Notes: a model not told the origin generated them from the letters alone. Positions 40,551 to 58,317 are shown, numbered from the stretch's first letter. The stretch is 64,000 nucleotides of DNA from Elusimicrobiota bacterium (GCA_016207605.1 JACQPJ010000035.1:11345-75344); one strand, 5' to 3'. Translations and numbers: made by a program.

Positions 40551-40570
40551 ATCGCTTCTACCGTCGGAGA

Positions 40571-40616
40571 TGGTTGCGGGGGCTGGATTTGAACCAGCGA
40601 CCTCAAGGTTATGAGC
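40571..40616 (-). repeat. att site: 46-nt duplicate of the 3' half of tRNA-Met
   Basis: Identical to 58241..58286 (CCA end through to the anticodon loop). Diverges immediately after ATGAGC. Confidence 0.85.
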
Positions 40617-43570: not shown

Positions 43571-43620
43571 TTTCCCGCTCGGTAATATTTTTGCAGTTAT
43601 CCGCCTTATTTGAGATAATT

Positions 43621-43634
43621 TTCCCGAACGGGAA
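43621..43634. promoter_or_regulatory. Perfect palindrome TTCCCGAACGGGAA, putative HipB operator 1
   Basis: Lies 51 nt upstream of the hipB start and is repeated exactly 50 bp further upstream. Confidence 0.5.
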
Positions 43635-43670
43635 TATTATACCCGTCCGGGGCGATTTACGCAAGGGATA

Positions 43671-43684
43671 TTCCCGAACGGGAA
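43671..43684. promoter_or_regulatory. Perfect palindrome TTCCCGAACGGGAA, putative HipB operator 2
   Basis: Identical to 43621..43634. A degenerate third copy, TTCCCGCTCGGTAA, is at 43572..43585. Confidence 0.5.
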
Positions 43685-43764
43685 AATACGCCCTCAAAAC
43701 GGTCATTTTATACCCGATCGCGCCTTTTTTTGCGCCTCCGGAAAGCGGGGTAGGGTAGTACCCC

Positions 43765-44748
43765 TTATTGAACCGGCGGTGTCCAGCTTGGTACGCTCAG
43801 AGGCGTAGCGCTCGAGCGTACCAAGCTGGAGCGGCCCGCTCGCGCGTCCTGCGCCAGCGCCTCCATCGGTGAGAACTTCCTGTGCTGCTCGGCCACGTCC
43901 CGCCGCGCCAGGTTCACGTACTGCCGGGTCATCTCCAGCGTCGAGTGCCCGAGGATTTCCTGCAGGCTGAACGAGTCGCCGCCGTTGCGGACGTAGAGCA
44001 CAGCGAAGGTGTGCCTGAGCGTATGCGGCGATAGCCGCACGCCATCGATCCCGGCTTCCCGGCCGTAGCGGACGATGAGCTTACGCATCTTGCTGCGGCA
44101 GATCGGCTTGCCGGTCCGGCCCAGGAAGAACTGCCCGCCTTTGATCGGCCGCTGGCTGCGGGCGCGCGCGTACTCGAGCAGCGCCTGCGCCGTGCGCGCG
44201 CTGAAGGGCACGGAGCGCTCCTTGCGGCCCTTGCCCATGACCACGGCCGCGCAGTTGACCCAATCCACGCGCGCCGCCTCCAGGGACAGGACCTCGGAGA
44301 TCCGCAGACCCGAGTCGAGCATGACCATCATCATTGCGCGGTCCCTGACGCCTTCCCAGCTCCGCGTGTCGGGGGCCTCAAGTAGCTGGGCTGCCTGCTC
44401 CGGGCTCATGGGCCGGATCAGCGCGCGCTCGCGCCGCGGCCGCTCGACCAGTTCCATCGGGTTGCGGGCGAGCATGCCCTCGCGCGTCCAGAACCGGAAG
44501 GCGCAGCGGATGCCGCCGTAGGTCCGGAAGACGGTCTCGGAGGAATGCCCCTTGGCCCGCAGCGCGGCCAGGTGCTCGCGCAGCAGAGCGGGCGTGACGA
44601 GCGCCAACTCCCTCGCGCCGCGCCGGGCCAGGGAGGCCTCCAGATCGCGGAGGATATGCCGGTACCAGACCACGCTGCCGGCGGCCAGGTTCAGGGCCGT
44701 GCAGCGCGCGAGGAAGGCCTCTCGGGCGGCTTCCAGGGAGCCGTTCAT
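43765..44748 (-). CDS. Tyrosine recombinase/integrase (XerC/D-like)
   Basis: SGLRISE, GKGRKERSVPF, HTLRHTFA and LGHSTLEMTRQY give the R..HxxR..Y catalytic set. ATGA overlap with the upstream gene. Confidence 0.85.
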   Translation of the reverse strand: MNGSLEAAREAFLARCTALNLAAGSVVWYRHILRDLEASLARRGARELALVTPALLREHLAALRAKGHSSETVFRTYGGIRCAFRFWTREGMLARNPMELVERPRRERALIRPMSPEQAAQLLEAPDTRSWEGVRDRAMMMVMLDSGLRISEVLSLEAARVDWVNCAAVVMGKGRKERSVPFSARTAQALLEYARARSQRPIKGGQFFLGRTGKPICRSKMRKLIVRYGREAGIDGVRLSPHTLRHTFAVLYVRNGGDSFSLQEILGHSTLEMTRQYVNLARRDVAEQHRKFSPMEALAQDARAGRSSLVRSSATPLSVPSWTPPVQ

Positions 44749-45563
44749 GCCGCCGCCTCCGCTGGCGCGCCAGCCGGGGGTATCGTGAATACCTGAACGG
44801 ATTCGAGGCTGCCGCGGCGAATGAATCGGCACTGTCTTGGCGCCGTCCTGAACTCGGCCAAGCCGGCCGCGTAGACGTTCGTTCGCTGCACCGTCGTCGC
44901 GAGATGGACGATGTGCTCGACTCCGGTGGGCCAGCCGGTCAAATAGAGAACCTTGCCGTCAAAGGTCTGCCGTGCGCCCTCGGTGAACATGGCCCGATAG
45001 TGCTCGCGCGACTTGGACGTGAGCTCCACCTCCACCTGATGCGCGACGCCCGCCGCATCGGCGATGCGCAGATCCGGCAGTCTCAGCTTGGTGAAGCCGC
45101 GCTTGATTCGACCGCGGCGGTACAGGTCATCCCAGGTCCGCCGCGCCGTTTGGACCTTGAGGCCGAGCAGTTCGGCCAGGGTCAACCCCACGCCGCAGAC
45201 CGCGATCTCGTGCCGTAGATACGCTTCTCCCACGCCGCGACTCGGATGGTTGAAGACTGCCAATTGATGCCGCTTGAGTTGCTCATGGCCCCGGCCTGTC
45301 AGCAGGTAAACCTGCCAGTAATTCGTCGGCCTCCAGGTCCGGATCAGCCCCGCGCCGGCCAGCGCGCTCAGCCGTTTGTAGGCTCCGCCCCAGTGGTCCT
45401 CGCGCCGCAAGTCGTTGAAAAACAGCCTGATCCGCTCCGGCTCCGGAAGCTCCGTCCTGAAGAAAACCCCGTCGATTTGTCCCAGTCCCATCACGCCCCA
45501 TTTCTCGATCGCCGCCAAGATATTTAAGTCTCGTTTGGTCAGTTCCATTCTCCTCCTCTTCAT
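44745..45563 (-). CDS. Replication-relaxation family protein (wHTH plus PD-(D/E)xK-like), putative
   Basis: MELTKRDLNILAAIEKWGVMGLGQI, YLRHEIAV and LPDLRI...VEVEL. Start at 45563 or 45548. Confidence 0.55.
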   Translation of the reverse strand: MKRRRMELTKRDLNILAAIEKWGVMGLGQIDGVFFRTELPEPERIRLFFNDLRREDHWGGAYKRLSALAGAGLIRTWRPTNYWQVYLLTGRGHEQLKRHQLAVFNHPSRGVGEAYLRHEIAVCGVGLTLAELLGLKVQTARRTWDDLYRRGRIKRGFTKLRLPDLRIADAAGVAHQVEVELTSKSREHYRAMFTEGARQTFDGKVLYLTGWPTGVEHIVHLATTVQRTNVYAAGLAEFRTAPRQCRFIRRGSLESVQVFTIPPAGAPAEAAA

Positions 45564-45596
45564 CTCCAAAATTATTTGCTGCCCCTCGCCCACCGC

Positions 45597-45653
45597 CTTC
45601 CCGACCCCTCTACCACAACCAATCTGCATGGTTGGGGGAGAGGGGTCGGGAAG
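45597..45653. repeat. 57-nt inverted repeat (15-bp perfect arms) upstream of the replication-relaxation gene
   Basis: CTTCCCGACCCCTCT...AGAGGGGTCGGGAAG, with partially complementary inner arms ACCACAACC/GGTTGGGGG. Confidence 0.7.
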
Positions 45654-45782
45654 CGTCATCGGCCTCAACGATGACGAGGTGGGCGATCTTGGCCAGCAAA
45701 TATCGATAGTTTTTGATTGGGAGCTCTCCGAGCACCCCCGCCAACACGTTGGCGGACCTGTTGGTGGACTCTTCGCCCTGCT

Positions 45783-45915
45783 ATTACTATTCCGGCCGAA
45801 AAGCAAAACCCGCACACGGCCCCCTACTTACATATCGGGCGGGAGGACCAAATCGGCACAGACCTCCCACTTACTATTCCGGCGAGAGAGCCAAATCAGC
45901 ACATGGCCCTACACT
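45783..45915. repeat. Iteron-like degenerate direct repeats
   Basis: ACTATTCCGGC-N-GCAAAACCCGCACACGGCCC and ACTATTCCGGC-N-CCAAATCAGCACATGGCCC lie 86 nt apart. An intervening CCAAATCGGCACA sits inside the GGGAGG...CCTCCC hairpin. Confidence 0.5.
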
Positions 45916-46149: not shown

Positions 46150-46488
46150 TTAGGCTTTGGTAGGTCGCGAACAAGCGATATGCTTCGCTCGCGTCGCGTG
46201 GCTTTGGGGCAGGTAGGCGTTCATGAAGCTCTTGAAGAGAGCCCCATGATTGGGGATAAGCAAATGGAGCAACTCGTGGGCGATGACCTGGTCCTGGAAG
46301 GAGACGGGCTGGGACAACAGGTCGGCGCTGAAATAAACTCGGCCAGCGGTGGAGCACGAGGCCCATTTATTGCGCATAGCCTGGACGTAAACCCGCTTAG
46401 GTTGGACACCGATCTTAGTCGCCCAGCGGCCCACCCGCTGCTTGAACAGTGGCCTAGGGACCGGCTTGCCTCGTGGTGTCGAGATCAT
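46150..46488 (-). CDS. DUF45/YgjP-like (M48/SprT-like) zinc metallopeptidase-fold protein
   Basis: NKWASCSTAGRVYFSADLL...VIAHELLHLLIPNHG (HExxH). ATGA overlap with the hsdR stop. Confidence 0.7.
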   Translation of the reverse strand: MISTPRGKPVPRPLFKQRVGRWATKIGVQPKRVYVQAMRNKWASCSTAGRVYFSADLLSQPVSFQDQVIAHELLHLLIPNHGALFKSFMNAYLPQSHATRAKHIACSRPTKA

Positions 46489-49370
46489 TTGCTGCGCAGC
46501 TTGATGATCTGCTCGGCCATTTCTTTCATGCGTTCCAGGCCGACGGCCGGGCGCAGCAGCTTATAGAGTTCGGCTTTCAGTTGGCGGAACTCCTCCGCGT
46601 TCGCCGCGAAGTGGGGCAAACGCACGAACAGGGCGTCCACCTCCCGAGCGATGGCCTCAGCCTTAGCCGAGCCTGCACGGTCGAGCAGCCAGAAGGCCGC
46701 GAACGCCTCGGGAGAGAGTCCGGTCTTCTCGGCCTTGCGCCGGGCTTCATCGTACTCCCGCACGAGCTCCTCGAGCTCCTGGAGGGCGTCCTCCGTCGTC
46801 GTCTGGCGGTCTTCGTAGTTGCGAAGAATAGTTTCGGCGCGCTCGCCGATAGGGATCAGGAAGGGCTGGCGCGCGCCCTGCGAGTGAGCAAGCCCTGCCA
46901 GGGTGCGGACCAAGTTGATGATCTTGGCCGCCGGCGGAGCCTGCTTCTTCTTAAGAGCTTCCAGGGTTTCCTCGTTGATCGCCACGGTCTTGGTCACCGT
47001 GTCGAGCCCGAAAGCCTGGGCATGCTCGCGAACGATGCTCTCGGTCTTCTTCATGAGGTCCGAGTAGAATCCGCGGTGAGGGTTCACTGCGGCCCGGATC
47101 ACCTGATAAAGCCTGCAGAGCTTGGCGTAGTCGTCCATGAACGGCCGCATCATGGGGTCGGGCGAGATGATCTCGTAGAGGTTCTCAAGCTTCTTGAAGA
47201 AGTCGAAGAACCCGTCGCGTTTGGCGATCTCCGCGAGCGCCGCCACGGCCCGCTCCACGGCCTTGTCGTCCATGCGCCCGCGGCAGAGGGCCAGGTAGGG
47301 CGCGGCCTCTTCGTTCATCATGCGCACAAAGAGGGCCTTCAGCGCGTCGATGTTCTTGATGACGCTCTGCACCACATCCGAGTCGAAGGAGAGCGCCTTC
47401 TCCATGCGTTCGAAGATACCCACGAAGTCCACGACCAAGCCCGCGGGTTTCTTGATCCCGTCATCCTCGTAGGGCCGATTGACGCGCGCGATCGCCTGGA
47501 GCAAGGTATGGTCGCGCATAGGCTTGTCCAGGTACATGCAGTAAAGGATCGGTGCGTCGAAGCCTGTGAGCAGCTTCTCGGTGACGATCAGAATCTTGGG
47601 TTTCTCGCCCGGCTTGGTGAAAGCCTTGCGGACGTGCTTTTCCTGGTCGTCCTTGAGCTTGAACTTGGCCAGCGCCGGCGGATCGTTGTGGGCGGAGGTG
47701 TAGACGACGGTGGAATAATCCTCCGGCAGGACACGGTCGAGCTCCTTCTTGTAAAGGGCGCAGGCTTCCCGGTCCACGCCGACTAAGAACGCCTTATAGC
47801 CCAGCGGCTCGATGTTTTCTTTGAAATGCTTGGCGACGAACTCCGCGACCTGGCGGACCCGGTCCTTGGACTTGAGGAACGCCTTAAGCGTGACGGCGCG
47901 CTCAAGGATGTGGTTGAGCTCCTCGATGTCGCTGATGCCTTCAGTCTCGGCCAATGCCCAGAACTCCTTTTCAAGCATCTCCCGGGGAACGCGGATCTCG
48001 TTAGGTGCCAGGGCGTAGTGCAGCTCCAACGTCGTCCCGTCTGCGATCGATTCCTGGATGGAATATTTATCCAGGTAGCCCTGGGCGTCGTCCTTGCCGA
48101 ACACCTTGAAGGTGCCCTTGCCGTAGGCGATCTGGTCGATGGGCGTCCCGGTAAAGCCGATAAACGTCGCTTTCGGAAGGGCTGCCTGGAGATAGTTCCC
48201 GAGGTCGCTACCGGTGGAGCGGTGGGCCTCGTCCACCAAGACAAAGATGCTGTCGCGAGTGCAGAGGTCCTTGTCGGCTTTCTCGAACTTGTGGATCATC
48301 GAGACGATGAGCCCGCGGTAGTCGGTCCGCAGAAGCTCTTTGAGGTGCTTCTTGCTCTGGACGATCTCGGCCTTGCCCTCGCCCAAGATGCTGGTGATCC
48401 AGCCCGAGAGTTGGCCTTCCAGCTCGTTTCTATCGACCAGCATCAGGACTGTCGTTTTCCCAAAAGAGGGATTCTCCAGCAGTTGCCGCGCTGCCGTGAT
48501 CATCGTGAAGGTCTTGCCTGATCCCTGGGTGTGCCAGATAAGGCCGGTCTTCTTAACGGGGTCGAGCGCCCGTTCCACGATTTTCTCGACGGCTCGGGAC
48601 TGGTGCTGGCGCAGGACGGCCTTCTGGAGCTCGTCGTCCTTCAGGAAGAAAATGATCCAGTCGCGCAGGAGCTTGAGGAACCGCTCGCGCCCGAAGAAGC
48701 GCTTCACCTTCGCCTCGAAGTTGCCGGGCTCCTCTTCCTTCCAGTTGAAGATGCTCTTTCGGTCGAGGTTCCAAGTGACGCCGTAGTGAAAATCGAGCAG
48801 TTGGGTCGCCTCGAAGACTTGGGGGGAGACCATCAGCTCCGGCGTCTCCTCGTGGTAGCGCCTCAGCTGTACCACGGCGCGGTCGATTCCATCCGCATAC
48901 TTGGCTGACTTGGTTTCGGCTATGGCGACTGGGATGCCGTTAATCAGGAAAACGACGTCGGCGCGGTTGCCCTTCTGGCCATTGGTGTATTCCCACTCAT
49001 CGGTGACGTGAAAGACATTGTTTCCGGGGCGCTCGAAGTCCACCACATTGACATTGCGCCGGCGCTTCTCGCCCTCGGAATGAATCGAGTGGTCGCCGCG
49101 CAGCCACTTGAGAATTTCGGCGTTGCCCTCAATCGTGCACCGGACGTTCTCGATACGGGCGATGATGTCGTCCGCGTTCTTCCCGTCCACCACCCCGGGG
49201 TTTAGGGCATTCAGCTTCTCGCGCAACACCTGATAGAGCAGCCATCCGCCGGCACCGCGTCTGAGTCGAAGGACCTCATCGGCAGGGAGATAGGTCCAAC
49301 CGATCTCCTCGGCATAACCGATGAGGGGGTTCTGGACCGCGTCGCGTTCACCGCCGAGCTGTGGAGGCAT
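46485..49370 (-). CDS. hsdR: Type I restriction enzyme R subunit
   Basis: N-terminal PD-(D/E)xK (RADVVFLINGIPVAIAETK). SF2 motifs TQGSGKTFT, VDEAHRS, FTGTP, TEKLLTGFDAP and QAIARVNR. Confidence 0.9.
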   Translation of the reverse strand: MPPQLGGERDAVQNPLIGYAEEIGWTYLPADEVLRLRRGAGGWLLYQVLREKLNALNPGVVDGKNADDIIARIENVRCTIEGNAEILKWLRGDHSIHSEGEKRRRNVNVVDFERPGNNVFHVTDEWEYTNGQKGNRADVVFLINGIPVAIAETKSAKYADGIDRAVVQLRRYHEETPELMVSPQVFEATQLLDFHYGVTWNLDRKSIFNWKEEEPGNFEAKVKRFFGRERFLKLLRDWIIFFLKDDELQKAVLRQHQSRAVEKIVERALDPVKKTGLIWHTQGSGKTFTMITAARQLLENPSFGKTTVLMLVDRNELEGQLSGWITSILGEGKAEIVQSKKHLKELLRTDYRGLIVSMIHKFEKADKDLCTRDSIFVLVDEAHRSTGSDLGNYLQAALPKATFIGFTGTPIDQIAYGKGTFKVFGKDDAQGYLDKYSIQESIADGTTLELHYALAPNEIRVPREMLEKEFWALAETEGISDIEELNHILERAVTLKAFLKSKDRVRQVAEFVAKHFKENIEPLGYKAFLVGVDREACALYKKELDRVLPEDYSTVVYTSAHNDPPALAKFKLKDDQEKHVRKAFTKPGEKPKILIVTEKLLTGFDAPILYCMYLDKPMRDHTLLQAIARVNRPYEDDGIKKPAGLVVDFVGIFERMEKALSFDSDVVQSVIKNIDALKALFVRMMNEEAAPYLALCRGRMDDKAVERAVAALAEIAKRDGFFDFFKKLENLYEIISPDPMMRPFMDDYAKLCRLYQVIRAAVNPHRGFYSDLMKKTESIVREHAQAFGLDTVTKTVAINEETLEALKKKQAPPAAKIINLVRTLAGLAHSQGARQPFLIPIGERAETILRNYEDRQTTTEDALQELEELVREYDEARRKAEKTGLSPEAFAAFWLLDRAGSAKAEAIAREVDALFVRLPHFAANAEEFRQLKAELYKLLRPAVGLERMKEMAEQIIKLRSK

Positions 49371-49373
49371 GGC

Positions 49374-50630
49374 CTATTTCGCTTTGGTCAGGTTCTTCAG
49401 GACAGACGACATGAGTTCGAACAGGGCATGCTTCGAAACAGCCTCCTCCTTCTCCTTCGGTTCTTCTCGTCCAAAGAACTTCTCCGTAAGCCTCGCTTTG
49501 ATCTCGTTGCGCTGAGCTTCAGGCAGCAGAACGAGGTAGGCGTCGATGGATGCGAGTTCCAGGTGCGTTTTCCTGAGTGCGTTCTCCCGATCGCGATGTT
49601 TTGACGATTCCTGGGCAGCGTAGATCGCAGGAATCGCGATCACTACCGCCGTTCCTAGTCTGAACGCGAAAGTATGCCAGCTCACATCGTGGAAGATGCT
49701 GAAGAAGAACGCGATACCTGCGACCACGATCATTGCGCCCATTAGCCACAGGGCCGCGGTGCGGAGCCAATCAGCAGTGGAGCGCTCGGTATCGGCCGTG
49801 GTCTTGAAGTGTCCCGCGAATGAGGCGGAGCCGATGGCGCCAAAAATCTTATCGACCTCCGCTTCCCGAGTCTTCAGATTCTGGAGGTGCTGGTCGCTCT
49901 TCTTTTGTAGGTCCTTGAAGAACTCGTCGCCGCGCGTCTTCTGGGCCTCCTGGAACTTCTTGGCATCTTCTTCCCGGGCTTTCAGCAGCTGTTGAAATTC
50001 GGCGGCGCGTTTCGCAGCGTCAGCCGCATAGGTATTCGTACGGGTGGTCTCGGCGCTCGTAAATTGCTGCTGGTACGCGGCAATGGACTGGTCCAGCCGG
50101 CCCTTCTGCTGCTCGATTAAGGCTGCCAATCCGTCAAGCCGGGCTTTCTCGGCGTCGATGGACTTGGTAATCGCGGCTACAGCGGCTTTTTCATCAGTAA
50201 CGCCCTTGCGTATCTGAAGGAGCTCCTCGGATATTTTCGACTGGAAGGCCTTGGCCGCCTCGGTAACCGTCGCTACGACTGTCCCTGCGTCCTGCCGCTC
50301 GCTAGGGCGCAAAAACGCCAACAACTCGTCAGCCATCGAGTTCGCATTGTTGATAGCTCCAGCGTTGGGGTTTTGAGAAAAGGCGGTGGCGTAGTTCTGA
50401 AGGTTGTTCGACCAGGTCCCGATATTCGCCCACGCGTTCGGATGATAGAGCTCTGGGTCGAGGTTCTGTAGGCAGGCCAGAACGGCCTTAACGGCCTTCA
50501 GGAGGCGCGCGTAATTGGGAAGATCGTCCCCGGTCAGCTTGTCCGTCTTTGCTGATTCAAGGAGGCGCAGGGCCTCCTTTACCCGCTCGATCGGCTGCTG
50601 TGCGTTAAAGACATCATGCCATCGCGACAT
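49374..50630 (-). CDS. Hypothetical coiled-coil protein with C-terminal 2-TM module (cassette gene X3)
   Basis: 418 aa. Long A/K/E/Q-rich helical region, then AALWLMGAMIVVAGIAFFFSIF and FAFRLGTAVVIAIPAIYAA, then a charged tail. Ends 3 nt before hsdR. Confidence 0.6.
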   Translation of the reverse strand: MSRWHDVFNAQQPIERVKEALRLLESAKTDKLTGDDLPNYARLLKAVKAVLACLQNLDPELYHPNAWANIGTWSNNLQNYATAFSQNPNAGAINNANSMADELLAFLRPSERQDAGTVVATVTEAAKAFQSKISEELLQIRKGVTDEKAAVAAITKSIDAEKARLDGLAALIEQQKGRLDQSIAAYQQQFTSAETTRTNTYAADAAKRAAEFQQLLKAREEDAKKFQEAQKTRGDEFFKDLQKKSDQHLQNLKTREAEVDKIFGAIGSASFAGHFKTTADTERSTADWLRTAALWLMGAMIVVAGIAFFFSIFHDVSWHTFAFRLGTAVVIAIPAIYAAQESSKHRDRENALRKTHLELASIDAYLVLLPEAQRNEIKARLTEKFFGREEPKEKEEAVSKHALFELMSSVLKNLTKAK

Positions 50631-50656
50631 GGTTCCCTCTCATCCCCAGACTTGCT

Positions 50657-50956
50657 TCATTGCGCTCTCGCAATAATAACCTGCATCCTTGAATCGTTTG
50701 GATTGTAGCCTGGGCGCGTCTTCGGATAGATGTCGCCAGTTACGGAGAGATTTCGAATCTCCGAAAGCAAATAGAGTCGCCAGCCCGGCAGTTCGCCTGA
50801 GTGGCTGAAGCCCGCCGTTTGGAAACAGGAAAGGACTTCGTGGCCAGTATCCTTGTGCAGGCCATAGGTGTGCGGTTCAGCCGTCCCAACGAGCCCGTTG
50901 TACCAGAAGGTGATGATTCGGCGGTGGCTTACTGCGGCAGTCAGTTCTGAACCCAT
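50657..50956 (-). CDS. Small WYL/Sm-SH3-like beta-barrel protein (cassette gene X2), tentative
   Basis: 99 aa. RRIITFWYNG...AEPHTYGL...LSCFQTAG...WRLYLLSEIRNLSV resembles the WYL-domain pattern. Confidence 0.45.
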   Translation of the reverse strand: MGSELTAAVSHRRIITFWYNGLVGTAEPHTYGLHKDTGHEVLSCFQTAGFSHSGELPGWRLYLLSEIRNLSVTGDIYPKTRPGYNPNDSRMQVIIARAQ

Positions 50957-50968
50957 ATTGTGATCCTC

Positions 50969-52549
50969 TTAGCTAGCGGTCTTCCCGTATTGGATCTTGC
51001 AGAGCGCGACTCTGAATCCGAGCCCCTGAATTAGCTTCACATGAGTTAGAAGATGGATTTTGCTGAACAAAAACATATCCGTGGCGGCCGAGGCCTTCCC
51101 CCGCATGGGCAAGGCGAAGACGAAGCAGGCCTTCCGCGTGGGCGTCTCGATGAGATGGCCGGACCATTTCTTTGTGAGTATACCCGCGACCTTGGCACGG
51201 TAGGTGTCATCGCCGCGCAGGAGCTGGGCAGAGACGCTGCCTTGCGCGAAGAGGTGGCTCAAAGTGGCCGAGTCGCGCATACGTTTGACCGCGATGAAGT
51301 ACCCCTCGTGCGTGGCAAGGTCGCAGACCTCGATCCTGTTGTGTCCTTCGACATGAACGAGCTTCTTGTCGAGGAGGAGCCAGTCCTTCTGCTTGGCCGC
51401 GCGCTCATTGTAGTCGCCTTCCTTCTCGCCCTCGTTCATGCGTGGCATCTTAAGCCGGGCCGTGATGTCTTCAAGAGCGCCGATTTGGCGCTTTATTCGT
51501 TCTACGAACGAGCGCCGCGCGTGGAACCACTGGCCAAAAGTCAGGGTATAGGTGTCCTGGCTATAGGTGACCTCACAGACCAGGCACTCTCGCAGTGAAA
51601 GTCTCTCCGTGGCGGGATTGCCGTCAGAGTCGAGGCCTACGACCCAGGTCTTATCGGGATCGGGCTGGACGTCAGGGTAGGCGTCGTAGAAGTCGTAAAC
51701 CGCGCCGATGTGGAGGTCGTGGACTTGGACGTTCTTGTGGCCCGAACTGATCTGGAACTGCTCGACTCGAGTCTCGTCGATGAAGTTCGGGAAGGCGGCC
51801 ACGATGTGCCCGCGCTTGCGCTTGGCCAACTGCTCGGCCAGCTCAGAGTCGAGCGTGGTAAGTACGGGGTCGGAGGATTTAACCGTTTCGAAGCTGTCGG
51901 CAAATCCGAAGTGTTCCTTGTATTTATCGGATTTGTACTCCTTGAGTAGTTCCTCGCACTTCTTCCCGAGTTGAGGAAGAGAAACATCGCAGGTGATGTG
52001 CATTGAGTCGGAGCCGCTGACGTTGCTAGCGACATCCTTGTCCTTGGGTTTGCCGGAGACGTAGCGCACCAGGTCGATCTGGGGGTCGAGGCCGAAATCC
52101 GAGACGGCGCTTTCCACGCTGACATGGGTTCGCTTCTGCTTGACGACCTGCTCCAGGTTCCGGGTATCGACTGTCCGGAGCTTGGCGGGATCCATGATAT
52201 TGAAGGCGCCCATGAGCCCGAATCGCGGCTCTATCTTAGACCGGTCCAGTGCCAGGAAGCCGTAGCCGAATGTGACGGCGAAGACCCGCCCACCAGCTTT
52301 CAATAGAAGGACAAAGGCACTGCTCGCGGTGTGGATGCGCAGGCCGCCGGTATCGAAGTGATCGCCGAGGAATCCAAGCCACTTTGGGGGCTTGAATCGA
52401 GTGGTCTGCACGAAGGCCTTACAGGGGTAGGGCAGCTGCGAGGCGCCCTTGAGTTCCTTGTAGGCATTCGGGCCGGCCAAGCTCTCCGGCTTGATCAGGT
52501 CGTCGAAACCCTTGACGCTGTCTCGGAATAGGTGAATCGAGAGTCTCAT
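50969..52549 (-). CDS. TIGR04141/DUF6119-like sporadically distributed protein (cassette gene X1), tentative
   Basis: 526 aa. N-terminal MRLSIHLFRD...FVLLLKAGGRVFAVTFGYG and C-terminal IEVCDLATHEGYFIAVKRM (nuclease-like). ATGA overlap with the hsdS stop. Confidence 0.5.
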   Translation of the reverse strand: MRLSIHLFRDSVKGFDDLIKPESLAGPNAYKELKGASQLPYPCKAFVQTTRFKPPKWLGFLGDHFDTGGLRIHTASSAFVLLLKAGGRVFAVTFGYGFLALDRSKIEPRFGLMGAFNIMDPAKLRTVDTRNLEQVVKQKRTHVSVESAVSDFGLDPQIDLVRYVSGKPKDKDVASNVSGSDSMHITCDVSLPQLGKKCEELLKEYKSDKYKEHFGFADSFETVKSSDPVLTTLDSELAEQLAKRKRGHIVAAFPNFIDETRVEQFQISSGHKNVQVHDLHIGAVYDFYDAYPDVQPDPDKTWVVGLDSDGNPATERLSLRECLVCEVTYSQDTYTLTFGQWFHARRSFVERIKRQIGALEDITARLKMPRMNEGEKEGDYNERAAKQKDWLLLDKKLVHVEGHNRIEVCDLATHEGYFIAVKRMRDSATLSHLFAQGSVSAQLLRGDDTYRAKVAGILTKKWSGHLIETPTRKACFVFALPMRGKASAATDMFLFSKIHLLTHVKLIQGLGFRVALCKIQYGKTAS

Positions 52550-53820
52550 GGGGCTATGCGGACCTTCCCTGTCATAAGCTGATGGAGCATCGAGGCAAAG
52601 AGAGAATTAAGCTCATTCTCTTTCGCCGTGGCGGTCAGGGTGCTCTGGTCAATCGCACTCAGAGTATCGGCCACTTTTTGCTGCTGGTTCAGAGGCAGAA
52701 GCGGGACCTTCTGGCGACGCACGTCCGTATCCGTGACCGCTGGGTAGCTAGCGCCATGCTGCACGCGTCCCAGGGCCTCGAAGAACTCAGGACGCTGGAC
52801 CGCGTAGTAAAGAAATTGTGGCAATAGCTGGTCGCGATCGGCTCGTAAAACACAGAATGCGGTAGAGCAGAATTGCCCGTCCAATTTGTGAGGGACCAGC
52901 GCAACCCGCTTCAGCGTCGGACGAACAGTCGCAACAATAACATCGCCGCTCATAATTGGCTTGCGCGCCCTGCTTGGGGCCGATTCAGGTGTATGCGCTG
53001 CCGTTGAGGTTATGCAGTAGTCCTCATTTGAGACGGCGGACACGTCTACGTACTCGAATTCTTTTTCTGGAGAAGCCATTCGGACTTTGAGGCAGATCTT
53101 GTCAAGATGGCCCCACGAATATTTTGAATCAGACTCTTGTGGGAAAACCTCGCGTAGAGTTGCGGCCTTTAGCTCTCTTAGGGCTGCTATTGTCTTGCTT
53201 TGAGTTTCAACGGCCGCCTCGACTTTCGCAAGTACCGTCGAGATAGCGCGCTGCTCATCCAGTTGAGGAAGAGGAATGGCGAATTCCTTTAGTCGCGCAG
53301 ATGAGAGATTGGGGATGGTCGTCCTGTTTGCGGCACCTTCATAGACCTTTCGATGAAGAATCACTTCTTGGAGCCAGTACATGGCAAATCGGGGCTCGAT
53401 ATGGGGGACAATTCGTCTAAGCCGATGAATATGGTTTTGATACAGACAATCGGGCAGTTCGTTGCTCCAGATCGCTGTCCGCCCAACTTCTCCGCCCTCG
53501 CAGACCAAAAGATCTCCGAGTTGAAGTTCCAGTTTTTTGGATTCCGCATCCGTGAAGTGCATGCGATCTACAGAGGAGAGGTTAATCTTGCCCCAGAGGA
53601 CATTGGAAGTTCGCAAAAACGGTCTGGGGGACGGACCACCACGACTCTCGGCTGACATAGCCTTCCCTTGTTGAACATCGAAAAGGCTGCCAAGGGAAGC
53701 GAGTCGCCAGTCACGCGGAATCTGACCGACTTCAGTCATATGAGATTGAGATCGCTCGCTATCGGTTTGCACAGCACCCTGAAGTATTTTGCGTCGGGAA
53801 GTCGATGAGGTGGTGGCCAT
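52546..53820 (-). CDS. hsdS: Type I restriction-modification specificity subunit
   Basis: Two target-recognition halves. Conserved spacer LPQLDEQRAISTVLAKVEAA and C-terminal LNSLFASMLHQLMTGKVR. Confidence 0.85.
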   Translation of the reverse strand: MATTSSTSRRKILQGAVQTDSERSQSHMTEVGQIPRDWRLASLGSLFDVQQGKAMSAESRGGPSPRPFLRTSNVLWGKINLSSVDRMHFTDAESKKLELQLGDLLVCEGGEVGRTAIWSNELPDCLYQNHIHRLRRIVPHIEPRFAMYWLQEVILHRKVYEGAANRTTIPNLSSARLKEFAIPLPQLDEQRAISTVLAKVEAAVETQSKTIAALRELKAATLREVFPQESDSKYSWGHLDKICLKVRMASPEKEFEYVDVSAVSNEDYCITSTAAHTPESAPSRARKPIMSGDVIVATVRPTLKRVALVPHKLDGQFCSTAFCVLRADRDQLLPQFLYYAVQRPEFFEALGRVQHGASYPAVTDTDVRRQKVPLLPLNQQQKVADTLSAIDQSTLTATAKENELNSLFASMLHQLMTGKVRIAP

Positions 53821-55715
53821 TAGCTGTATTCGTATCCGAGGCCCGTGAAAATCTCTTCAAGTTCCTTATCCTGACGCGAGGCTGTGCCCTTGAGCTTCGC
53901 CAGATCGGCGAGTATGTCCTGGATGTCCCTATGCTCGGTGGCACCGGTTGTCTCGATGTAGCGCGCCGGCGAGAGGTTGAAATCGTTCTTGTCCCCGATT
54001 TTCTCCGCCGGTAGGAGCTTGGCAAAGCGCTCGGCGTCCTTTCCGGTGCGGACGGCCGCCGCGATCTTGTCGATAGCAGCCTCGGTCAGGAAGTTCTTGG
54101 GCCGTCCCTTCTCGAATTCGGCCCCGGCATTGATCATCAGCACCTTGCTCATTCGCTCCTTGGGCTTGGCGTTGTTGAGGACGACGATGATGCCAGCGGC
54201 CGTGGTGTTGTAGAAGAGGTTGTCGGGAAGCAGAATCACCGCCTCGACGAGATCCTTCTGGATGAACCACTTCCGGATGGCCTTCTCCTTGTTGTCGCCC
54301 TGGCTGCCGCTGCCGCGGCTGGCGGCGCCAGTGTCGAGGACGATGGCTGCGCGGCCCGTATCCTTGAGGGAGGCATGGATGTGTTGGAGCCAGGCCCAGT
54401 CGGCGCTTTGCCGGGGGGCGAAGCCTCCTCGGCCAGAGAAGCGGTCCAGGGGGTCTTTCTCGTAAGTCTCTTCCGGGGAGAAATTATCTTGGTTCCACAT
54501 GGGGTTGGTAACCACAATGTCGAAGCGCTTGAGACGGCCGCCCTCCCGGAACTTCGGGTTCGTCATGGTGTTGCCGCGGACGATCTCGCCCTCCATGTCG
54601 TGGATGACCATGTTCATCCGGGCGATGGCGAAGCTGGCTCCCGTCAGTTCCTGGCCGTAGAGCTTAAGGGGCTTGGCTACGCGCCCCTCGCGCTCGGCGA
54701 GATCCAGCTCGCACTTGACCAGGAGGCCGCCGGAGCCGCAGCAGGGATCGTAGGCTTCCTCGCCCTGCTTGGGGCGAAGAATCTTGGCGATCAGGCGGCC
54801 GACTTCGCGCGGCGTGAAAAACTCGCCGGCGCTCTGGCCCTGGCCCTCGGCGAACTTGCGCAGGAGGTACTCGTAGGCGCGGCCGAGAAAGTCCGGCTCC
54901 ACGTCGTTGAGGCCCAGGCGATGCTTACTCAAGATCTCGATGAGGCGGGCCAGGGCGTTGTCGCTCAGCTCTCGCTCGCCGTTGCGCGTCTCGTTGTAGT
55001 CCACGATATCGATGACGCCTTGGAGCGACTCGTTGGCTTTGGCCACGGCGCGGATAGCGCTGGTCACCTGCTCACCGAGCGTCTTGGGGGCGCGGCCGCC
55101 GGGCCAGGTGTGCTTCTTTCTTCCACTTATAACGGGCCAGCGGGCCTCGGCGGGGATGTAGAAGCGTACCAGGCTGTGGTCGGCCTCCACGTTCTCGAGC
55201 GCCATGACCTCGTTGCCGAAGGTCTTGATGAGGCGGGTGATCTCGTCCTCGAACACGTCGGAAAGGCGTTTGACAAAAATGAGCGGGAGGATGTAGTCCT
55301 TGAACTTCGGAGCGTCCTTCTCGCCGCGGATGGAGCAGGCGGCTTGCCAGAGCAGCGCCTCCATTGATTTGAGGTCGAGCATGGCGATGGGGCGGCGGAG
55401 ATGAAGGGGTTCATCGGAGGCGGTTTCTTCGTCCGGCTCCTCCAAAGTCATGGGTGGGCGGCGGACGGAAATCGGCTCGTCGCCAGGCTCGGCCTCCGGG
55501 AAGAAATCAGCTATAATGTCAGCGCACTCGTTCCGCTTGCTGAGCACGAAGTGGCGGATCAGGTTGAGCACGGCGGTCGTGGGCTTCGTCTTGCCGTTCT
55601 CCCAGCGGTTGATCGTCGGGTAGGACACGTGAAGTTCTCGGGCGAGATCGGCTTGGCGCAGTTCCAGGCGGTCTCGGATGGCCTTGAGCAGCTTGGGGAG
55701 TTCTTTTTTATTCAT
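53820..55715 (-). CDS. hsdM: Type I R-M N6-adenine methyltransferase subunit with N-terminal XRE-type HTH
   Basis: HTH: LRQADLARELHVSYPTINRWENGKTKP. HsdM_N: LLWQAACSIRG. Motif I: DPCCGSGGLLV. Motif IV: VVTNPMWN. Confidence 0.9.
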   Translation of the reverse strand: MNKKELPKLLKAIRDRLELRQADLARELHVSYPTINRWENGKTKPTTAVLNLIRHFVLSKRNECADIIADFFPEAEPGDEPISVRRPPMTLEEPDEETASDEPLHLRRPIAMLDLKSMEALLWQAACSIRGEKDAPKFKDYILPLIFVKRLSDVFEDEITRLIKTFGNEVMALENVEADHSLVRFYIPAEARWPVISGRKKHTWPGGRAPKTLGEQVTSAIRAVAKANESLQGVIDIVDYNETRNGERELSDNALARLIEILSKHRLGLNDVEPDFLGRAYEYLLRKFAEGQGQSAGEFFTPREVGRLIAKILRPKQGEEAYDPCCGSGGLLVKCELDLAEREGRVAKPLKLYGQELTGASFAIARMNMVIHDMEGEIVRGNTMTNPKFREGGRLKRFDIVVTNPMWNQDNFSPEETYEKDPLDRFSGRGGFAPRQSADWAWLQHIHASLKDTGRAAIVLDTGAASRGSGSQGDNKEKAIRKWFIQKDLVEAVILLPDNLFYNTTAAGIIVVLNNAKPKERMSKVLMINAGAEFEKGRPKNFLTEAAIDKIAAAVRTGKDAERFAKLLPAEKIGDKNDFNLSPARYIETTGATEHRDIQDILADLAKLKGTASRQDKELEEIFTGLGYEYS

Positions 55716-55811
55716 GTATCAGGTGATAGTCTAACTGATACTTTTTGATCAGTCAAGGCCCATGGCGCCTTTTGTCAAGGCGCCTTTCGGCCGCGCCTTC
55801 ACTCGAATCCT

Positions 55812-57161
55812 ATGGGCAATGTCCTGCGTCTGGAGCCTCGCGCCAAACCTTTGCCGCCCCGGCAAGGAGACCCGGCGATGGAGCGCGCCCTCCTGGGTTT
55901 CTTCGGCGCAGCCTTGAGCCTCCTCCAGAGGGAGAAATCCCAGGCTGAGTCAATCGAAGGCAGGAACCTCCATATCCCGACCTTCGAGATCACCGATGAA
56001 CCCGGCCGGTTCGGGGTCAACACGAGCACCAAGATCGAGCTAGTTGCCGACTGGACCTGGTTCGTCCTGCGCCGCTACGAAAAACTGCGCGAGCTGACGG
56101 AGCTGAAGACCGGGCTCGGCGCGCTCTCCAAGCATGTCGAGGTCGAGAAGTTCTACGGCTGCGACCAGTCTTACTTTTTCCACCCTGTCATCGAGTTGAT
56201 CGAGACGAGCAAGGGCTTGGATGTCCCGATTGAGATGCAGACGGCGGCAGCCAAGAGCCTGGCCGAGCAGATCGTGGATGGCCGCTACCAGGTCGAGACG
56301 ACCTCCGTGCTCATGGGGTTTCAGAGCGCCGTCAGTCCGATTCTATTCGGCGACTTCGAAATCCGAAACTACACGCAGGAGGAGTGCCGGGCGCTTTGGG
56401 AGGCCGATGGGAAGTCGGCCGAAGACGGCAACTCGCTTAACCCCAGCGACTTCGTGGTTAAGGTCTTTGGCATCGCGGACTCCAAGAAGCACGGCAAAGA
56501 ATATTGGGAGTTCCTGCGCCAGATTCAAAAAGTGGTCTTTTGTCTGCGCCTATTCAAACCGGGCCGTCTTCAAATCGACAATCGGCCCTCGATGGGCAAG
56601 CTCGGCTGGGCCTACGGCATGCCGGCGACGCAGCGCCTTCGCTCGCCTTGGCCCAAGGGCAAGACATACCGCCTCTCCGCCGAGGAGATCGAGGACTTCA
56701 AAGATCTTTGGGCGCGTCATGCCAGTGCTTTTGATTCCAAGGATCGGCGCCTGAGTCTGGCCATCAAGCGCTTCAATGGCTACTACGACCGTGAAACACC
56801 CGAAGACGGCATTATCGACACTTTTATCGGGTTCGAGGCGCTGCTCACCGAAAACAACCATGAGATCACCTACAAGCTGAGCCTGCGAGCCGCGAACCTC
56901 ATCGGCGAATCGGCTCAGGAACGTGAAACTATCTTCAACGACATCAAGGCAGGCTACAAGCTGCGCAGCCTGATCGTTCACGGCGACGAACTCAAGAAGC
57001 AGTTCGATCTGCCCTCAAGGCAGGCTAAGGTAAACCTCAAAGACTTCGGCGAGGCGATGAGCCGCTATCTGGCCAAGGCTATCCTGCGCGTCAGCGCCTT
57101 GGGGCTGGCTAAGCCCGAAACTGAACTCCTGCCCTACCTAGACAAGCTTGCGCTGAAATAG
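55812..57161 (+). CDS. ApeA-like HEPN-domain protein (putative abortive-infection RNase)
   Basis: 449 aa. C-terminal helical domain IIDTFIGFEALLTE...KLSLRAANLIG...IKAGYKLRSLIVHGDE carries the Rx4H HEPN motif in an Apea-type context. Divergent from hsdM. Confidence 0.55.
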   Translation: MGNVLRLEPRAKPLPPRQGDPAMERALLGFFGAALSLLQREKSQAESIEGRNLHIPTFEITDEPGRFGVNTSTKIELVADWTWFVLRRYEKLRELTELKTGLGALSKHVEVEKFYGCDQSYFFHPVIELIETSKGLDVPIEMQTAAAKSLAEQIVDGRYQVETTSVLMGFQSAVSPILFGDFEIRNYTQEECRALWEADGKSAEDGNSLNPSDFVVKVFGIADSKKHGKEYWEFLRQIQKVVFCLRLFKPGRLQIDNRPSMGKLGWAYGMPATQRLRSPWPKGKTYRLSAEEIEDFKDLWARHASAFDSKDRRLSLAIKRFNGYYDRETPEDGIIDTFIGFEALLTENNHEITYKLSLRAANLIGESAQERETIFNDIKAGYKLRSLIVHGDELKKQFDLPSRQAKVNLKDFGEAMSRYLAKAILRVSALGLAKPETELLPYLDKLALK

Positions 57162-57164
57162 TCC

Positions 57165-58133
57165 TCAGCGCACGAGTATGCGGCGCCTCCCGCCTGGCAC
57201 GAGACCAAGACGGTCCATCGGACTGAACTTCTGATGGAGCAACGCCACGTCACGGTTCGCCAGCCCGACATAGACCTTCACCATGTCGAGCGTCGAATGC
57301 CCGAGGATTTGCTGTAGGCTGAACGCGTCGCCGCCGTTCAGGATGTACTGAGTCGCGAAGGTGTGGCGCAGGGTGTGCGGCGAGACGCGGACGCCTTGGA
57401 TGCCGGCCTGCTGGCCGATGCGGCGAAACTCCTTGCCGAACAGGTAGCGGCAACCGCGGCCGCCGTAGCGGCTCACGAAGAACAGGTCCTGGCCGGGGAC
57501 GTCGCCGCGGCGGGCCGCGTAGTTCCAGAGCACGCGCTTGGTGTTGATGCCGAAGGGGACTTGGCGTTCCTTGCCGCCTTTGCCCATGACGCGCAGGACG
57601 CCGGCGCCGAAATCGATCGCGTCCTTGCGCAAGTTGATGACCTCCGAGATGCGCAGGCCGGTGTCGAGGATCAGGACCATCACGGTCCAGAGCCGATGCT
57701 CGTCGTAGCGCTTCTGGTTGCATTGGGCGAGCAAGATGCGCACTTGGTCCATCGAGAGCGGCCGGATGAGCTTGCGCTCGACGCGGGGCTTCTCGACGAG
57801 CTGGATGGGGTTCTGGGGGATGAGGCGCTCGCGGGAGAGGAAGCTGAAAAAGCAGCGCAGGCCGCCATAGGCGCGCTCGACGGTCACGGTGCTGTTGCCG
57901 CGCTCGCGCATGGCTTCGAGGTACTGGCGCAGGAGCGTGGGCGTGACCTCTCGGACGGTCGTGACGCCGCGCTCCTCGAGGAACCGGCCGAAGAGCTTGA
58001 GCAACTGCTTGTACCAGCCGAGCGTTCCGGCGCTCAGGTTCTGCGCCTGACAGCGCAGGCGAAATGCCTCCGAGGCCGAGCCTAGCGTCACTTCGAATTG
58101 TCCGGCGGGGCGGAAGGCGAGCGTTTTTCTCAT
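57165..58133 (-). CDS. Tyrosine integrase adjacent to tRNA-Met
   Basis: TGLRISE, GKGGKERQVPF, HTLRHTFA and LGHSTLDMVKVY. Confidence 0.9.
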   Translation of the reverse strand: MRKTLAFRPAGQFEVTLGSASEAFRLRCQAQNLSAGTLGWYKQLLKLFGRFLEERGVTTVREVTPTLLRQYLEAMRERGNSTVTVERAYGGLRCFFSFLSRERLIPQNPIQLVEKPRVERKLIRPLSMDQVRILLAQCNQKRYDEHRLWTVMVLILDTGLRISEVINLRKDAIDFGAGVLRVMGKGGKERQVPFGINTKRVLWNYAARRGDVPGQDLFFVSRYGGRGCRYLFGKEFRRIGQQAGIQGVRVSPHTLRHTFATQYILNGGDAFSLQQILGHSTLDMVKVYVGLANRDVALLHQKFSPMDRLGLVPGGRRRILVR

Positions 58134-58209: not shown

Positions 58210-58240
58210 CGTTTGTTTCTCGACGAGAAACGCCGCTAAA

Positions 58241-58317
58241 TGGTTGCGGGGGCTGGATTTGAACCAGCGACCTCAAGGTTATGAGCCTTGCGAGCTACCG
58301 GGCTGCTCTACCCCGCA
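58241..58317 (-). tRNA. tRNA-Met (anticodon CAT), CCA encoded
   Basis: Cloverleaf by hand: acceptor TGCGGGG/CCCCGCA, D arm GAGC/GCTC, anticodon stem CAAGG/CCTTG with loop CTCATAA, T arm GCTGG-TTCAAAT-CCAGC, discriminator A, CCA. It lacks the initiator 3xG-C stem. An Ile2 (lysidine) identity cannot be excluded. Confidence 0.9.

Follow-up and report, generated by a model that had tools for sequence, protein, structure and literature searches.

The interval between hsdS and hsdR of a Type I restriction–modification (R-M) operon in an Elusimicrobiota bacterium (GCA_016207605.1 JACQPJ010000035.1:11345-75344) holds three further genes, here called X1, X2 and X3, which raises the question of whether these form one defence system or are separate genes that share a site. 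The preliminary description of the window, i.e. the whole 64,000-nt stretch of DNA that was analysed, had taken the former view. The distribution of the genes in other genomes points to the latter: the hsdS–hsdR interval in this lineage of operons is probably a slot for variable cargo, filled here by three accessory genes, X1, X2 and X3, that are distributed separately and are not parts of one system. That hsd operons can host embedded defence genes, as had been noted at the outset, is documented by PrrC (PMC12707154), TgvAB (PMC11411939) and the “guilt-by-embedding” study (Payne et al. 2024, bioRxiv 10.1101/2024.01.29.577857). According to that study, the variable genes found within Type I R-M, BREX, DISARM and Hma clusters frequently turn out to be defence systems in their own right, and there, as in the work on the VPI-2 T1RM locus (PMC11411939), embedded systems can function without the host system. 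The cargo of the window belongs to the same general phenomenon of variable genes nested in R-M, and is a further example of this known pattern, drawn from experimentally uncharacterised families; the terms DUF6119, WYL-only and SLATT-like do not occur in the text or the searched part of the supplements of Payne et al.

The operon consists of seven co-directional genes on the minus strand, in the order hsdM with an HTH fusion, hsdS, X1, X2, X3, hsdR and a mini-YgjP gene. In the same order, neighbouring genes overlap by 1 nt and 4 nt at the first two junctions, are 12, 26 and 3 nt apart at the next three and overlap by 4 nt again at the last; the ORF check and coordinate arithmetic reproduced the ORFs, coordinates, strand and junctions first described exactly. 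hsdM (53820–55715, minus strand) encodes a Type I methyltransferase fused to HTH_3 at its N-terminus (N6_Mtase, 2.2e-89; HsdM_N, 5e-22; HTH_3, 7.6e-11; PADLOC MTase_I, 5.8e-164), and hsdS (52546–53820, minus strand) a specificity subunit with two target-recognition domains (Methylase_S, 2.1e-26 in two stretches; PADLOC Specificity_I, 2.5e-64). On the other side of the cargo, hsdR (46485–49370, minus strand) encodes the Type I restriction subunit (TIGR00348, 1.6e-139), with HSDR_N, SWI2_SNF2, T1R_D3-like and T1RH-like_C domains. Its stop codon is overlapped by the gene for a mini YgjP/DUF45-like metallopeptidase with a HELLH motif (46150–46488, minus strand; PF01863, 3.5e-23). These assignments of the flanking genes, made by profile matching, are solid, and the matches to N6_Mtase, Methylase_S and the HsdR model TIGR00348 bear out the claim that X1–X3 lie within a Type I hsd operon.

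The only minus-strand promoter-like site that precedes a gene start lies immediately 5′ of hsdM (55728–55756, minus strand; TTGACT-17-TAGACT, 9/12 matches, a consensus match only) and is a candidate operon promoter. Inside the operon, promoter-like and terminator-like sites are as numerous as expected from shuffled sequence. Co-transcription had been deduced from a lack of room for internal promoters or terminators; the internal signals are indeed at the shuffled level, but a single transcript for the whole operon is compatible with this rather than proven by it. The cargo genes would probably be transcribed together with the hsd genes from the promoter 5′ of hsdM.

The operon is carried on a 17.7-kb island integrated at a tRNA-Met gene (58241–58317, minus strand; found by ARAGORN), which contains the right att repeat (58240–58286). 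The left att-like direct repeat at the far end of the island (40570–40616, plus strand) is a copy of the 3′ part of the tRNA-Met and matches the right repeat perfectly over 47 nt, where 0 matches are expected by chance. A tyrosine recombinase gene (57165–58133) adjoins the tRNA-Met. The island also bears a HipA-like toxin.

In orthologous operons (hsdM 74–79%, hsdR 73–76% identical), the same hsdS–hsdR slot has varying content. The hsdM orthologues in loci L113, L116 and L117 cover this 74–79% range. Loci L113, L114 and L115 (hsdM 79%, hsdR 76%, YgjP 70%) have the order hsdS, X1 (86%), a gene for a 99-aa HNH protein (HNH match, 1.4e-4) and hsdR; the small protein was also considered as a WYL protein and rejected (hhalign probability 0.1). 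In L116 (hsdM 74%, hsdR 73%), the slot holds X3 (78%) alone, and in L117 and L118 (hsdR 76%) it holds X3 (61%) together with HNH_5, a 155-aa gene, DUF3800 and a 67-aa gene. In the less closely related L014 (hsdR 64%), X2 (64%) is found with a DUF4917 gene (4.7e-63), and the order in L010 is hsdS, X2 (58%), a 199-aa gene, a 281-aa gene, hsdR and YgjP. The YgjP-like gene 3′ of hsdR is kept in L113, L116, L117, L014 and L010. X1 (86% identical) and X3 (78%) differ from their counterparts in step with hsdM and hsdR, and the ancestral operon may therefore have carried both X1 and X3. There may also be lineage-specific functional interplay between cargo genes.

X1 (50969–52549, minus strand) encodes a 526-aa protein that had been likened to the TIGR04141/DUF6119 family and is a bona fide, full-length member of it with no difference from the family. 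It matches PF19614 (1.2e-133; 447 bits, cut-off 27) with residues 3–520 on profile positions 1–524, and TIGR04141 (1.5e-125; 419.6 bits, cut-off 35), both far above the curated cut-offs. No function of DUF6119/TIGR04141 is described in the literature titles and abstracts searched. In a 61-sequence alignment, the C-terminal part has an invariant block of E377, N381, E407, D410, K422, S427, S431, H432, L433 and Q436. The motif in this region, previously given with a nine-residue spacer, reads IEVCDL-x6-FIAVKR (IEVCDL ATHEGY FIAVKR). Its suggested identity as a PD-(D/E)xK core is weakly supported: D410 and K422 of the triad are invariant, but by sequence the (D/E) position is A420, and the invariant E407 or E377 could serve as the substitute acidic residue. 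The AF2 model (pLDDT 87.5) gave weak, local Foldseek matches of the C-terminal fold to CdiA-CT nuclease toxins (4zqu_A, probability 0.69, TMt 0.43; 4g6u_A, probability 0.47; both E = 0.07), and the case for X1 as a nuclease, made from the model, is weak. The N-terminal part is possibly RdgC-like, judging from weak matches of the model in BFVD to a phage “exonuclease” (probability 1.0, E = 3.4e-4, TMt 0.41) and to three RdgC-annotated phage proteins (probability 0.25–0.72); hhalign of the family with E. coli RdgC gave a probability of 0.15, and RdgC is absent among the 50 PDB fold matches listed for X1. Searching the PDB by sequence and by profile yielded nothing above chance level, the best match being to CSK kinase (E = 0.19).

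DUF6119 genes lie near hsd genes (≤10 kb) in 10–11 of 80 loci and between hsd genes in five, including the archaeal locus L060. Their neighbours include Type I R-M, BREX (BrxL), DISARM-type, DUF1156 methylase, TIR-STAND and Type II R-M (DpnII REase) genes, and relatives of X1 are found on 25 plasmids and one phage. X1 stands alone as a gene and is met repeatedly in defence islands and on mobile elements. The C-terminal domain of its product carries an invariant E...D...K / SHLFAQ block, and the protein would be an enzyme that binds or cuts nucleic acid by itself, with no partner protein.

X2 (50657–50956, minus strand) encodes a protein of 99 aa, predicted to be a stand-alone WYL fold. The AF2 model (pLDDT 90.2) has one short helix and a β-barrel, and its best Foldseek matches in the PDB, with probabilities of 0.98–1.0, are DriD (7tzv), BrxR (7qfz), PafBC (6sj9), CapW (9c5g) and WYL1 (6oaw). 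On solved WYL domains it superimposes with a TM of 0.52–0.63 and an rmsd of mostly 2.2–3.9 Å (PafBC 6sj9: TMq 0.63, rmsd 2.2), so that X2 is, as modelled, an Sm-like β-barrel of the WYL fold. The sequence features that had suggested a WYL-type protein are present, and AF2 and Foldseek uphold the fold; the sequence models stay below threshold, with no match to Pfam WYL at E ≤ 0.1 and a sub-threshold match to PADLOC WYL (E = 0.016, 13.5 bits). Like BrxR, CapW, DriD, PafBC and WYL1, X2 occurs in defence loci. Unlike proteins of the BrxR/CapW/DriD type, it lacks an HTH/RHH DNA-binding domain and a WCX domain (no HTH was found in its 99 aa with Pfam, NCBIfam or PADLOC) and therefore cannot act as a classical transcription factor. 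In every informative context, X2 is followed at 2–45 nt by a gene on the same strand: X3 in the window, DUF4917 in L014, a 199-aa gene in L010 and a 112+-aa gene in L012. X2 probably binds a nucleic-acid or nucleotide ligand, like other WYL domains, and modulates whatever gene comes next, elsewhere DUF4917 or other unknown genes.

X3 (49374–50630, minus strand) encodes a 418-aa protein that begins with a helical domain, continues as a coiled coil and ends in a SLATT-like 2-TM module (258–418). Hydropathy peaks locate the TM helices at ~288–312 and ~320–340, and the features quoted earlier for a coiled-coil 2-TM protein are all present. After the TM helices comes a conserved amphipathic helix with an invariant ESSKHR..RE...ELASIDAYL block. 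This C-terminal arrangement resembles that of SLATT 2-TM effectors (CBASS-like, RT-associated), and SLATT domains are commonly regarded as effectors that form pores. X3 differs from these in that its module is preceded by a long conserved N-terminal domain and the coiled coil, in scoring below the curated cut-off of SLATT_1 NF033634 (18.6 bits, cut-off 41; E = 0.0014) and in the absence of SMODS/SLOG or RT partners from nine contexts, in which the partners are hsd genes. Sub-threshold matches to NF033634 were found for 15 of 66 X3-family members (best 7.6e-5) and cover exactly the 2-TM C-terminal region, and Pfam DUF4231 matches three of the 66. Members of the family are mostly 400–450 aa long (about 420 aa), and their 2-TM module is strongly conserved. 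Seven of nine independent contexts (the window and six further) lie inside Type I hsd operons, which include at least two HsdR families; in those of the EcoEI_R_C type, the order is hsdR-hsdS-X3-hsdM. X3 is the most interesting of the cargo genes: its family is large and undescribed, consists of membrane proteins and occurs mostly within Type I R-M operons.

The three-component system that was first proposed, with a WYL protein as sensor, a nuclease-like DUF6119 protein and a 2-TM suicide effector together forming a second line behind R-M, can draw on the tight co-directional packing in one operon without convincing internal signals, on gaps of 12, 26 and 3 nt that are equally expected of a true multi-gene system, and on domain types that resemble the sensor and effector parts of known systems. 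Against it stands the distribution of the genes. The 80 DUF6119 loci taken from representative genomes, whose neighbouring genes were called by a naive ORF scan, contain no relative of X2 or X3, and no conserved partner gene of DUF6119 emerged; X1 or X3 occur in none of 23 other X2 loci; and X1 or X2 occur in none of eight other X3-family contexts. Of the X2 contexts, a handful (4–5) are long enough to be informative, most contigs being short. Among the loci examined, the three genes are together at no other, the outcome that the preliminary description had named as refuting its model. Orthologous operons have either X1 or X3 with neither of the other two, and X2 has another partner in the less close operon. 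The guesses of a DUF6119 protein, a WYL fold and two TM helices were upheld; PADLOC v2.0.0 matched X1, X2 and X3 to no named system. The three-component model is largely refuted by these data and has become very improbable. A further reading is that the cargo has nothing to do with defence, and consists of selfish or addiction-type hitchhikers, or of genes with no part in conflict, kept only because the slot tolerates insertions. The mobile nature of the island, with its att repeats, integrases and HipA-like toxin, and the frequency of DUF6119 on plasmids would suit such genes; each cargo family is, however, associated with defence loci, and all three recur specifically in R-M or defence neighbourhoods across phyla, which makes this reading improbable.

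Two other readings concern parts of the cargo. X2 and X3 might form one module, with the WYL sensor gating the membrane effector and X1 standing apart; in a wider form of this reading, X2-family proteins would be ligand-sensing adaptors that can be set directly before interchangeable effectors (X3, DUF4917 in L014 and the genes in L010 and L012). This fits the variable same-strand gene that lies 3′ of X2 (2–45 nt) in every informative context and the role of WYL domains as ligand-binding regulators of defence systems (PMC4012209, PMC9122588, PMC10853764). X2, however, has no HTH or known effector-binding domain, its judgeable contexts are only 4–5 in number, and X3-family genes have no X2 neighbour in any of the eight other contexts, so X3 does not need X2; such a pairing is unlikely, if less so than the other rivals. 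X3 could instead be an accessory R-M subunit, such as a membrane tether or scaffold that keeps the Type I complex near the entry point of foreign DNA at the inner membrane, or a regulator of HsdR assembly. Its almost exclusive association with hsd operons of varied families and gene orders, its usual position immediately 3′ of hsdS and the strikingly conserved length (~418 aa) and N-terminal domain all speak for such a role. It is nevertheless unlikely, since many orthologous operons lack X3 (L113, L014, L010), which makes it dispensable for R-M; the 2-TM and amphipathic-helix module yields SLATT-type sub-threshold matches, and L001 (46% identity) and more distant members lie outside R-M loci.

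Within the reading of X1–X3 as separate accessory genes in a variable slot, we infer a defence function, and X3 would be a membrane effector coupled to R-M. It would be kept silent by the R-M complex or sense its state, and when restriction fails or is inhibited, it would permeabilise or depolarise the membrane. This logic of a latent effector triggered by countered restriction is borrowed by analogy from PrrC (PMC12707154), making X3 a PrrC-like “guard” with a membrane output in place of the tRNA nuclease output. PrrC and RloC, the anticodon nucleases of Type I EcoprrI hsd operons, are likewise accessory, co-directional genes in an hsd operon, but X1, X2 and X3 have no ABC-ATPase or anticodon-nuclease domain (Pfam, NCBIfam, PADLOC), and X3 is a membrane protein whose coupling to R-M is presumed. 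A tentative extension, for which the odds are below even, is that the X3 family, whose C-terminal module alone forms at least 3,400 clusters at 50% identity, is an undescribed, widespread Type I R-M partner. Its members would be coiled-coil membrane proteins with a SLATT-like pore module, coupled to the R-M complex either as guards that kill the cell or halt its growth once restriction is defeated, or as tethers that hold the restriction complex at the membrane, and WYL-only proteins of the X2 type would be portable ligand sensors before interchangeable effectors (X3, DUF4917). The profile of the C-terminal module found 3484 representative clusters at E ≤ 1e-3. Close relatives of X3 come mostly from MAGs and metagenomes rather than from RefSeq isolates. 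In PADLOC, X3 also gives a partial match to LeoBC (2.4e-6), which covers the coiled-coil and TM part only.

In the window, which derives from an Elusimicrobia MAG, the type I restriction–modification (R-M) operon lies on the minus strand and begins with hsdM (53820-55715; N6_Mtase, 2e-89) and hsdS (52546-53820; Methylase_S, two domains). These are followed by X1 (50969-52549, 526 aa), X2 (50657-50956, 99 aa), X3 (49374-50630, 418 aa), hsdR (46485-49370; HsdR TIGR00348, 1.6e-139) and a gene for a truncated YgjP/DUF45-like metallopeptidase of 112 aa that bears an HELLH motif (46150-46488; YgjP-like, 3.5e-23). From hsdM to the metallopeptidase gene, adjoining genes first overlap by 1 nt and by 4 nt, are then separated by 12, 26 and 3 nt, and at the last junction overlap again by 4 nt. 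An ORF scan exactly reproduces this seven-gene map and the junctions as first described, and the domain matches of the flanking R-M genes give good support to the placement of X1–X3 inside a type I operon. A single transcript is plausible, if unproven, since, on this strand, hsdM alone among the genes has a promoter-like site just upstream of its start, and promoter-like and terminator-like sites within the operon do not exceed their frequency in shuffled sequence. The N-terminal 60 residues of HsdM are a fused Xre-type HTH_3 domain (7.6e-11), which is kept in the orthologous operons of three of the loci from other genomes that were compared with the window (L113, L116 and L117) and thereby suggests that the methylase may have a built-in means of regulating its own operon. 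The YgjP/DUF45-like gene overlaps the hsdR stop codon and is kept 3' of hsdR in the orthologous operons (62-72% identity); L010 has a 245-aa version.

The preliminary description regarded X1–X2–X3 as one cassette combining a sensor, a nuclease-like protein and a membrane effector. This is not supported, as the orthologous operons differ in what they carry between hsdS and hsdR and the three genes do not occur together in any of the other loci examined. The orthologous operons share the HTH–hsdM fusion and the small YgjP gene, and their hsdM and hsdR are 73-79% identical to those of the window. In L113, L114 and L115 (hsdM 79%, hsdR 76%), the interval holds X1 (86%) and a 99-aa HNH nuclease, with neither X2 nor X3, while L116 (hsdM 74%, hsdR 73%) has X3 (78%) only. 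In L117 and L118 (hsdR 76%), X3 (61%) is accompanied by HNH_5, a 155-aa gene, DUF3800 and a 67-aa gene. L014 (hsdR 64%) carries X2 (64%) and DUF4917, and the more distant L010 (hsdR 29%) carries X2 (58%) and two unrelated genes. The 99-aa gene after X1 in L113 was considered as a cryptic WYL protein and rejected (hhalign probability 0.1); it matches HNH instead. L113 and L116 represent the same locus with different cargo, because a divergent pair of a RES-domain toxin and an Xre-type antitoxin precedes hsdM in both (L113, 372-1670; L116, 166-1467). This is direct evidence that cargo has been exchanged within one conserved locus.

Among 80 loci encoding DUF6119, the family of X1, taken from GTDB representative genomes, an HMM search found no X2-like ORF (0/80), and X3-like ORFs were equally absent (0/80). 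Neither X1 nor X3 is present in any of 23 other X2 loci. The divergence of X1 and X3 from their counterparts runs parallel to that of the hsd genes, so the simplest history suggested by these sequences would be differential gain and loss of cargo within one operon lineage, not the recent arrival of a three-gene unit. The best-supported reading takes the hsdS–hsdR interval as a variable slot for cargo, in which X1, X2 and X3 would be accessory functions that are independent of one another and expressed together with the R-M genes.

X2 is predicted to form one helix and a small β-barrel (pLDDT 90), and its best matches in the PDB are almost all WYL domains, including those of DriD, BrxR, PafBC, CapW and WYL1 (TM 0.52-0.63, rmsd mostly 2.2-3.9 Å). 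The WYL-like character noted earlier is thus borne out by the fold but not by sequence models of WYL domains, none of which matches significantly. Since X2 has no DNA-binding HTH, it is a WYL-only protein. Genes of the X2 type are followed within 2-45 nt by a different gene each time: DUF4917 in L014 (685-2123), genes for 199-aa and 281-aa proteins in L010 (10001-11752) and another in L012 (5863-6540). In every informative context, the gene directly after X2 is a candidate effector that varies from locus to locus, which hints that X2-type proteins are portable sensors placed before interchangeable effectors. For the same reason, a narrower form of the cassette, in which X2 and X3 make up a two-gene unit of WYL sensor and effector, is kept alive, although X3 clearly manages without X2 elsewhere. 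Being WYL-only, X2 would probably bind a nucleic-acid or nucleotide ligand and modulate the gene 3' of it. Outside R-M operons, relatives of X2 adjoin a DUF5131/TcmP-like pair and a Type ISP fragment, and there are no matches in IMG/VR viral contigs.

X1 is a full-length member of the DUF6119/TIGR04141 family (447 and 420 bits), as had been supposed from its N-terminal pattern. The spacing of its C-terminal motif needs correction from nine residues to six (IEVCDL-x6-FIAVKR). In an alignment of 61 sequences, about half of the 20 invariant residues fall in the C-terminal block (E377, N381, E407, D410, K422, S427, S431, H432, L433 and Q436), which argues that a putative active or ligand-binding site lies in this part. 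For the AF2 model, which is confident (pLDDT 87.5), no PDB structure is a convincing match over the whole chain, and Foldseek returns only phytochrome and β-clamp noise (TM ~0.1). Local, weak structural matches connect it to CdiA-CT nuclease toxins (probability 0.47-0.69). Among viral models (BFVD), its matches are a phage "exonuclease" (probability 1.0) and three proteins annotated as RdgC (0.25-0.72), a tentative structural hint of RdgC likeness; hhalign failed to relate X1 to E. coli RdgC (probability 0.15). A weak CSK-kinase match to the C-terminus (E=0.19) was dropped for want of HRD or DFG motifs after the VAVK-like lysine. A nuclease or DNA-binding protein is a reasonable guess, and X1 would probably act alone on nucleic acid.

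Each of the three families, taken by itself, is associated with defense loci. In 10-11 of the 80 DUF6119 loci, hsd genes are no more than 10 kb away, and the DUF6119 gene is located between hsd genes in five, one being an archaeal Methanothrix operon. Other neighbors are BrxL, DUF1156 DISARM-type methylases, a TIR-STAND protein, a dynamin-like GTPase and a DpnII REase, and the family is found on 25 plasmids and in one phage record. When ORFs within 4 kb were clustered across the 80 loci, no conserved partner emerged except hsdM, in 10 loci. The nearest relatives of X1 outside the orthologous operons (L033-L037, 43-45% identity) are followed by a family of ~1000-aa genes common to all four loci, which in L034 and L036 carries DUF1156, like DISARM-type methylases. 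In L044, the DUF6119 gene is directly 3' of brxL in a BREX system.

X3 has the coiled coil and two hydrophobic helices previously ascribed to it: a conserved N-terminal helical region, the coiled coil and two TM helices (~288-312 and 320-340) are followed by a highly conserved block, ESSKHR..RE...ELASIDAYL, with E341, S342, H345 and R346 invariant. The stretch formed by the TM helices and this block gives a sub-threshold match to SLATT_1, both for X3 itself and for 15 of 66 family members; the remaining matches are coiled-coil noise. Members are 40-88% identical and nearly all 415-422 aa long. Seven of nine independent contexts are inside type I operons, including EcoEI_R_C-type operons with the order hsdR–hsdS–X3–hsdM in Burkholderiales, other Pseudomonadota and Verrucomicrobia. 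The two remaining contexts hold a 46%-identical copy, which adjoins a DUF4268 protein, and a copy with 30% identity. When the C-terminal module was used as a search profile, 3484 representative clusters matched at E<=1e-3, mostly with the same architecture; the 150 matches listed are all family-like proteins, so this search gives no bridge to annotated SLATT proteins and speaks only to family size. X3 is absent from the plasmid collection and has only two matches, at 24% identity, in IMG/VR viral contigs. Searches of PDB sequences with X1, X2, X3 and the X1 and X3 family profiles found nothing significant.

PrrC, the product of an embedded gene, is restrained by the type I enzyme until a phage blocks restriction, whereupon it becomes active (PMC12707154). 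Given this precedent, the near-exclusive association with hsd genes and the SLATT-like pore module, X3 is favored to be an R-M-coupled membrane effector that would likewise stay latent under the type I enzyme and fire upon phage inhibition of restriction. A serious rival is a non-lethal X3 that would tether the R-M enzyme to the membrane or act as its scaffold there. If X3 is indeed coupled to the enzyme, it would stand beside PrrC as an R-M guard of a second mechanistic class.

Like PrrC and RloC, known genes nested in R-M clusters, X1–X3 are nested in a type I operon. Nesting of this kind, in type I R-M, BREX, DISARM and Hma clusters, has been described as a source of defense systems, and a "guilt-by-embedding" survey gives 145 candidates (bioRxiv 10.1101/2024.01.29.577857); TgvAB in the VPI-2 island of V. 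cholerae is another example of nested defense (PMC11411939). No mention of DUF6119, WYL-only proteins or the SLATT-like coiled-coil family was found in the available parts of the survey and its supplements (bioRxiv 10.1101/2024.01.29.577857), PADLOC v2.0.0 has no model for X1, X2 or X3, and a search of titles and abstracts found no account of DUF6119/TIGR04141. The locus is therefore a further case of a described nesting pattern, made from uncharacterized families, and not a categorically new system. Its value is in the slot, a place where candidate defense genes are swapped: closely similar type I operons that differ only between hsdS and hsdR offer a clean natural experiment, and the cargo genes lend themselves to study one at a time. 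Two of the families, DUF6119 and especially the coiled-coil/2-TM proteins of 418 aa, are large, experimentally uncharacterized and repeatedly tied to R-M, BREX or DISARM loci, and are thus good single-gene candidates for phage defense, with the X3 family most worth following up.

The whole hsd operon resides on a classical tRNA-integrated genomic island of ~17.7 kb, bounded by a perfect 47-nt direct repeat (40570-40616 and 58240-58286) that copies the 3' part of a tRNA-Met gene (58241-58317). Two paralogous tyrosine recombinases, 48% identical, are encoded inside it on the minus strand (57165-58133 and 43765-44832), and a third integrase-like fragment, also on the minus strand, lies just outside the left repeat (39999-40466), which suggests that elements integrated at this one tRNA in tandem or in succession. 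Together with the tRNA-Met repeats and recombinases, a HipA-like kinase toxin gene (42084-43706, minus strand; HipA_C 4.6e-50, Couple_hipA 1.2e-25) and a PRiA4_ORF3 gene fit a mobile defense and toxin island. Just upstream of the HipA-like gene, three near-palindromic 20-nt repeats (ATTTTCCCGAACGGGAATAT) with a spacing of 49-50 nt (43569-43687) look like putative operator sites. Divergent from hsdM is a 449-aa ORF (55812-57161, plus strand) that has no match in Pfam, NCBIfam or PADLOC and only one to phrog_28161 (1.4e-5); it may be a further defense candidate of the island, since visual inspection shows an R-x4-H motif (RSLIVH) that recalls HEPN RNases. In the 5' part of a 356-aa ORF as called (44745-45815), there is also a 25-nt inverted repeat (45597-45653) whose arms are 92% complementary and enclose a 7-nt loop.
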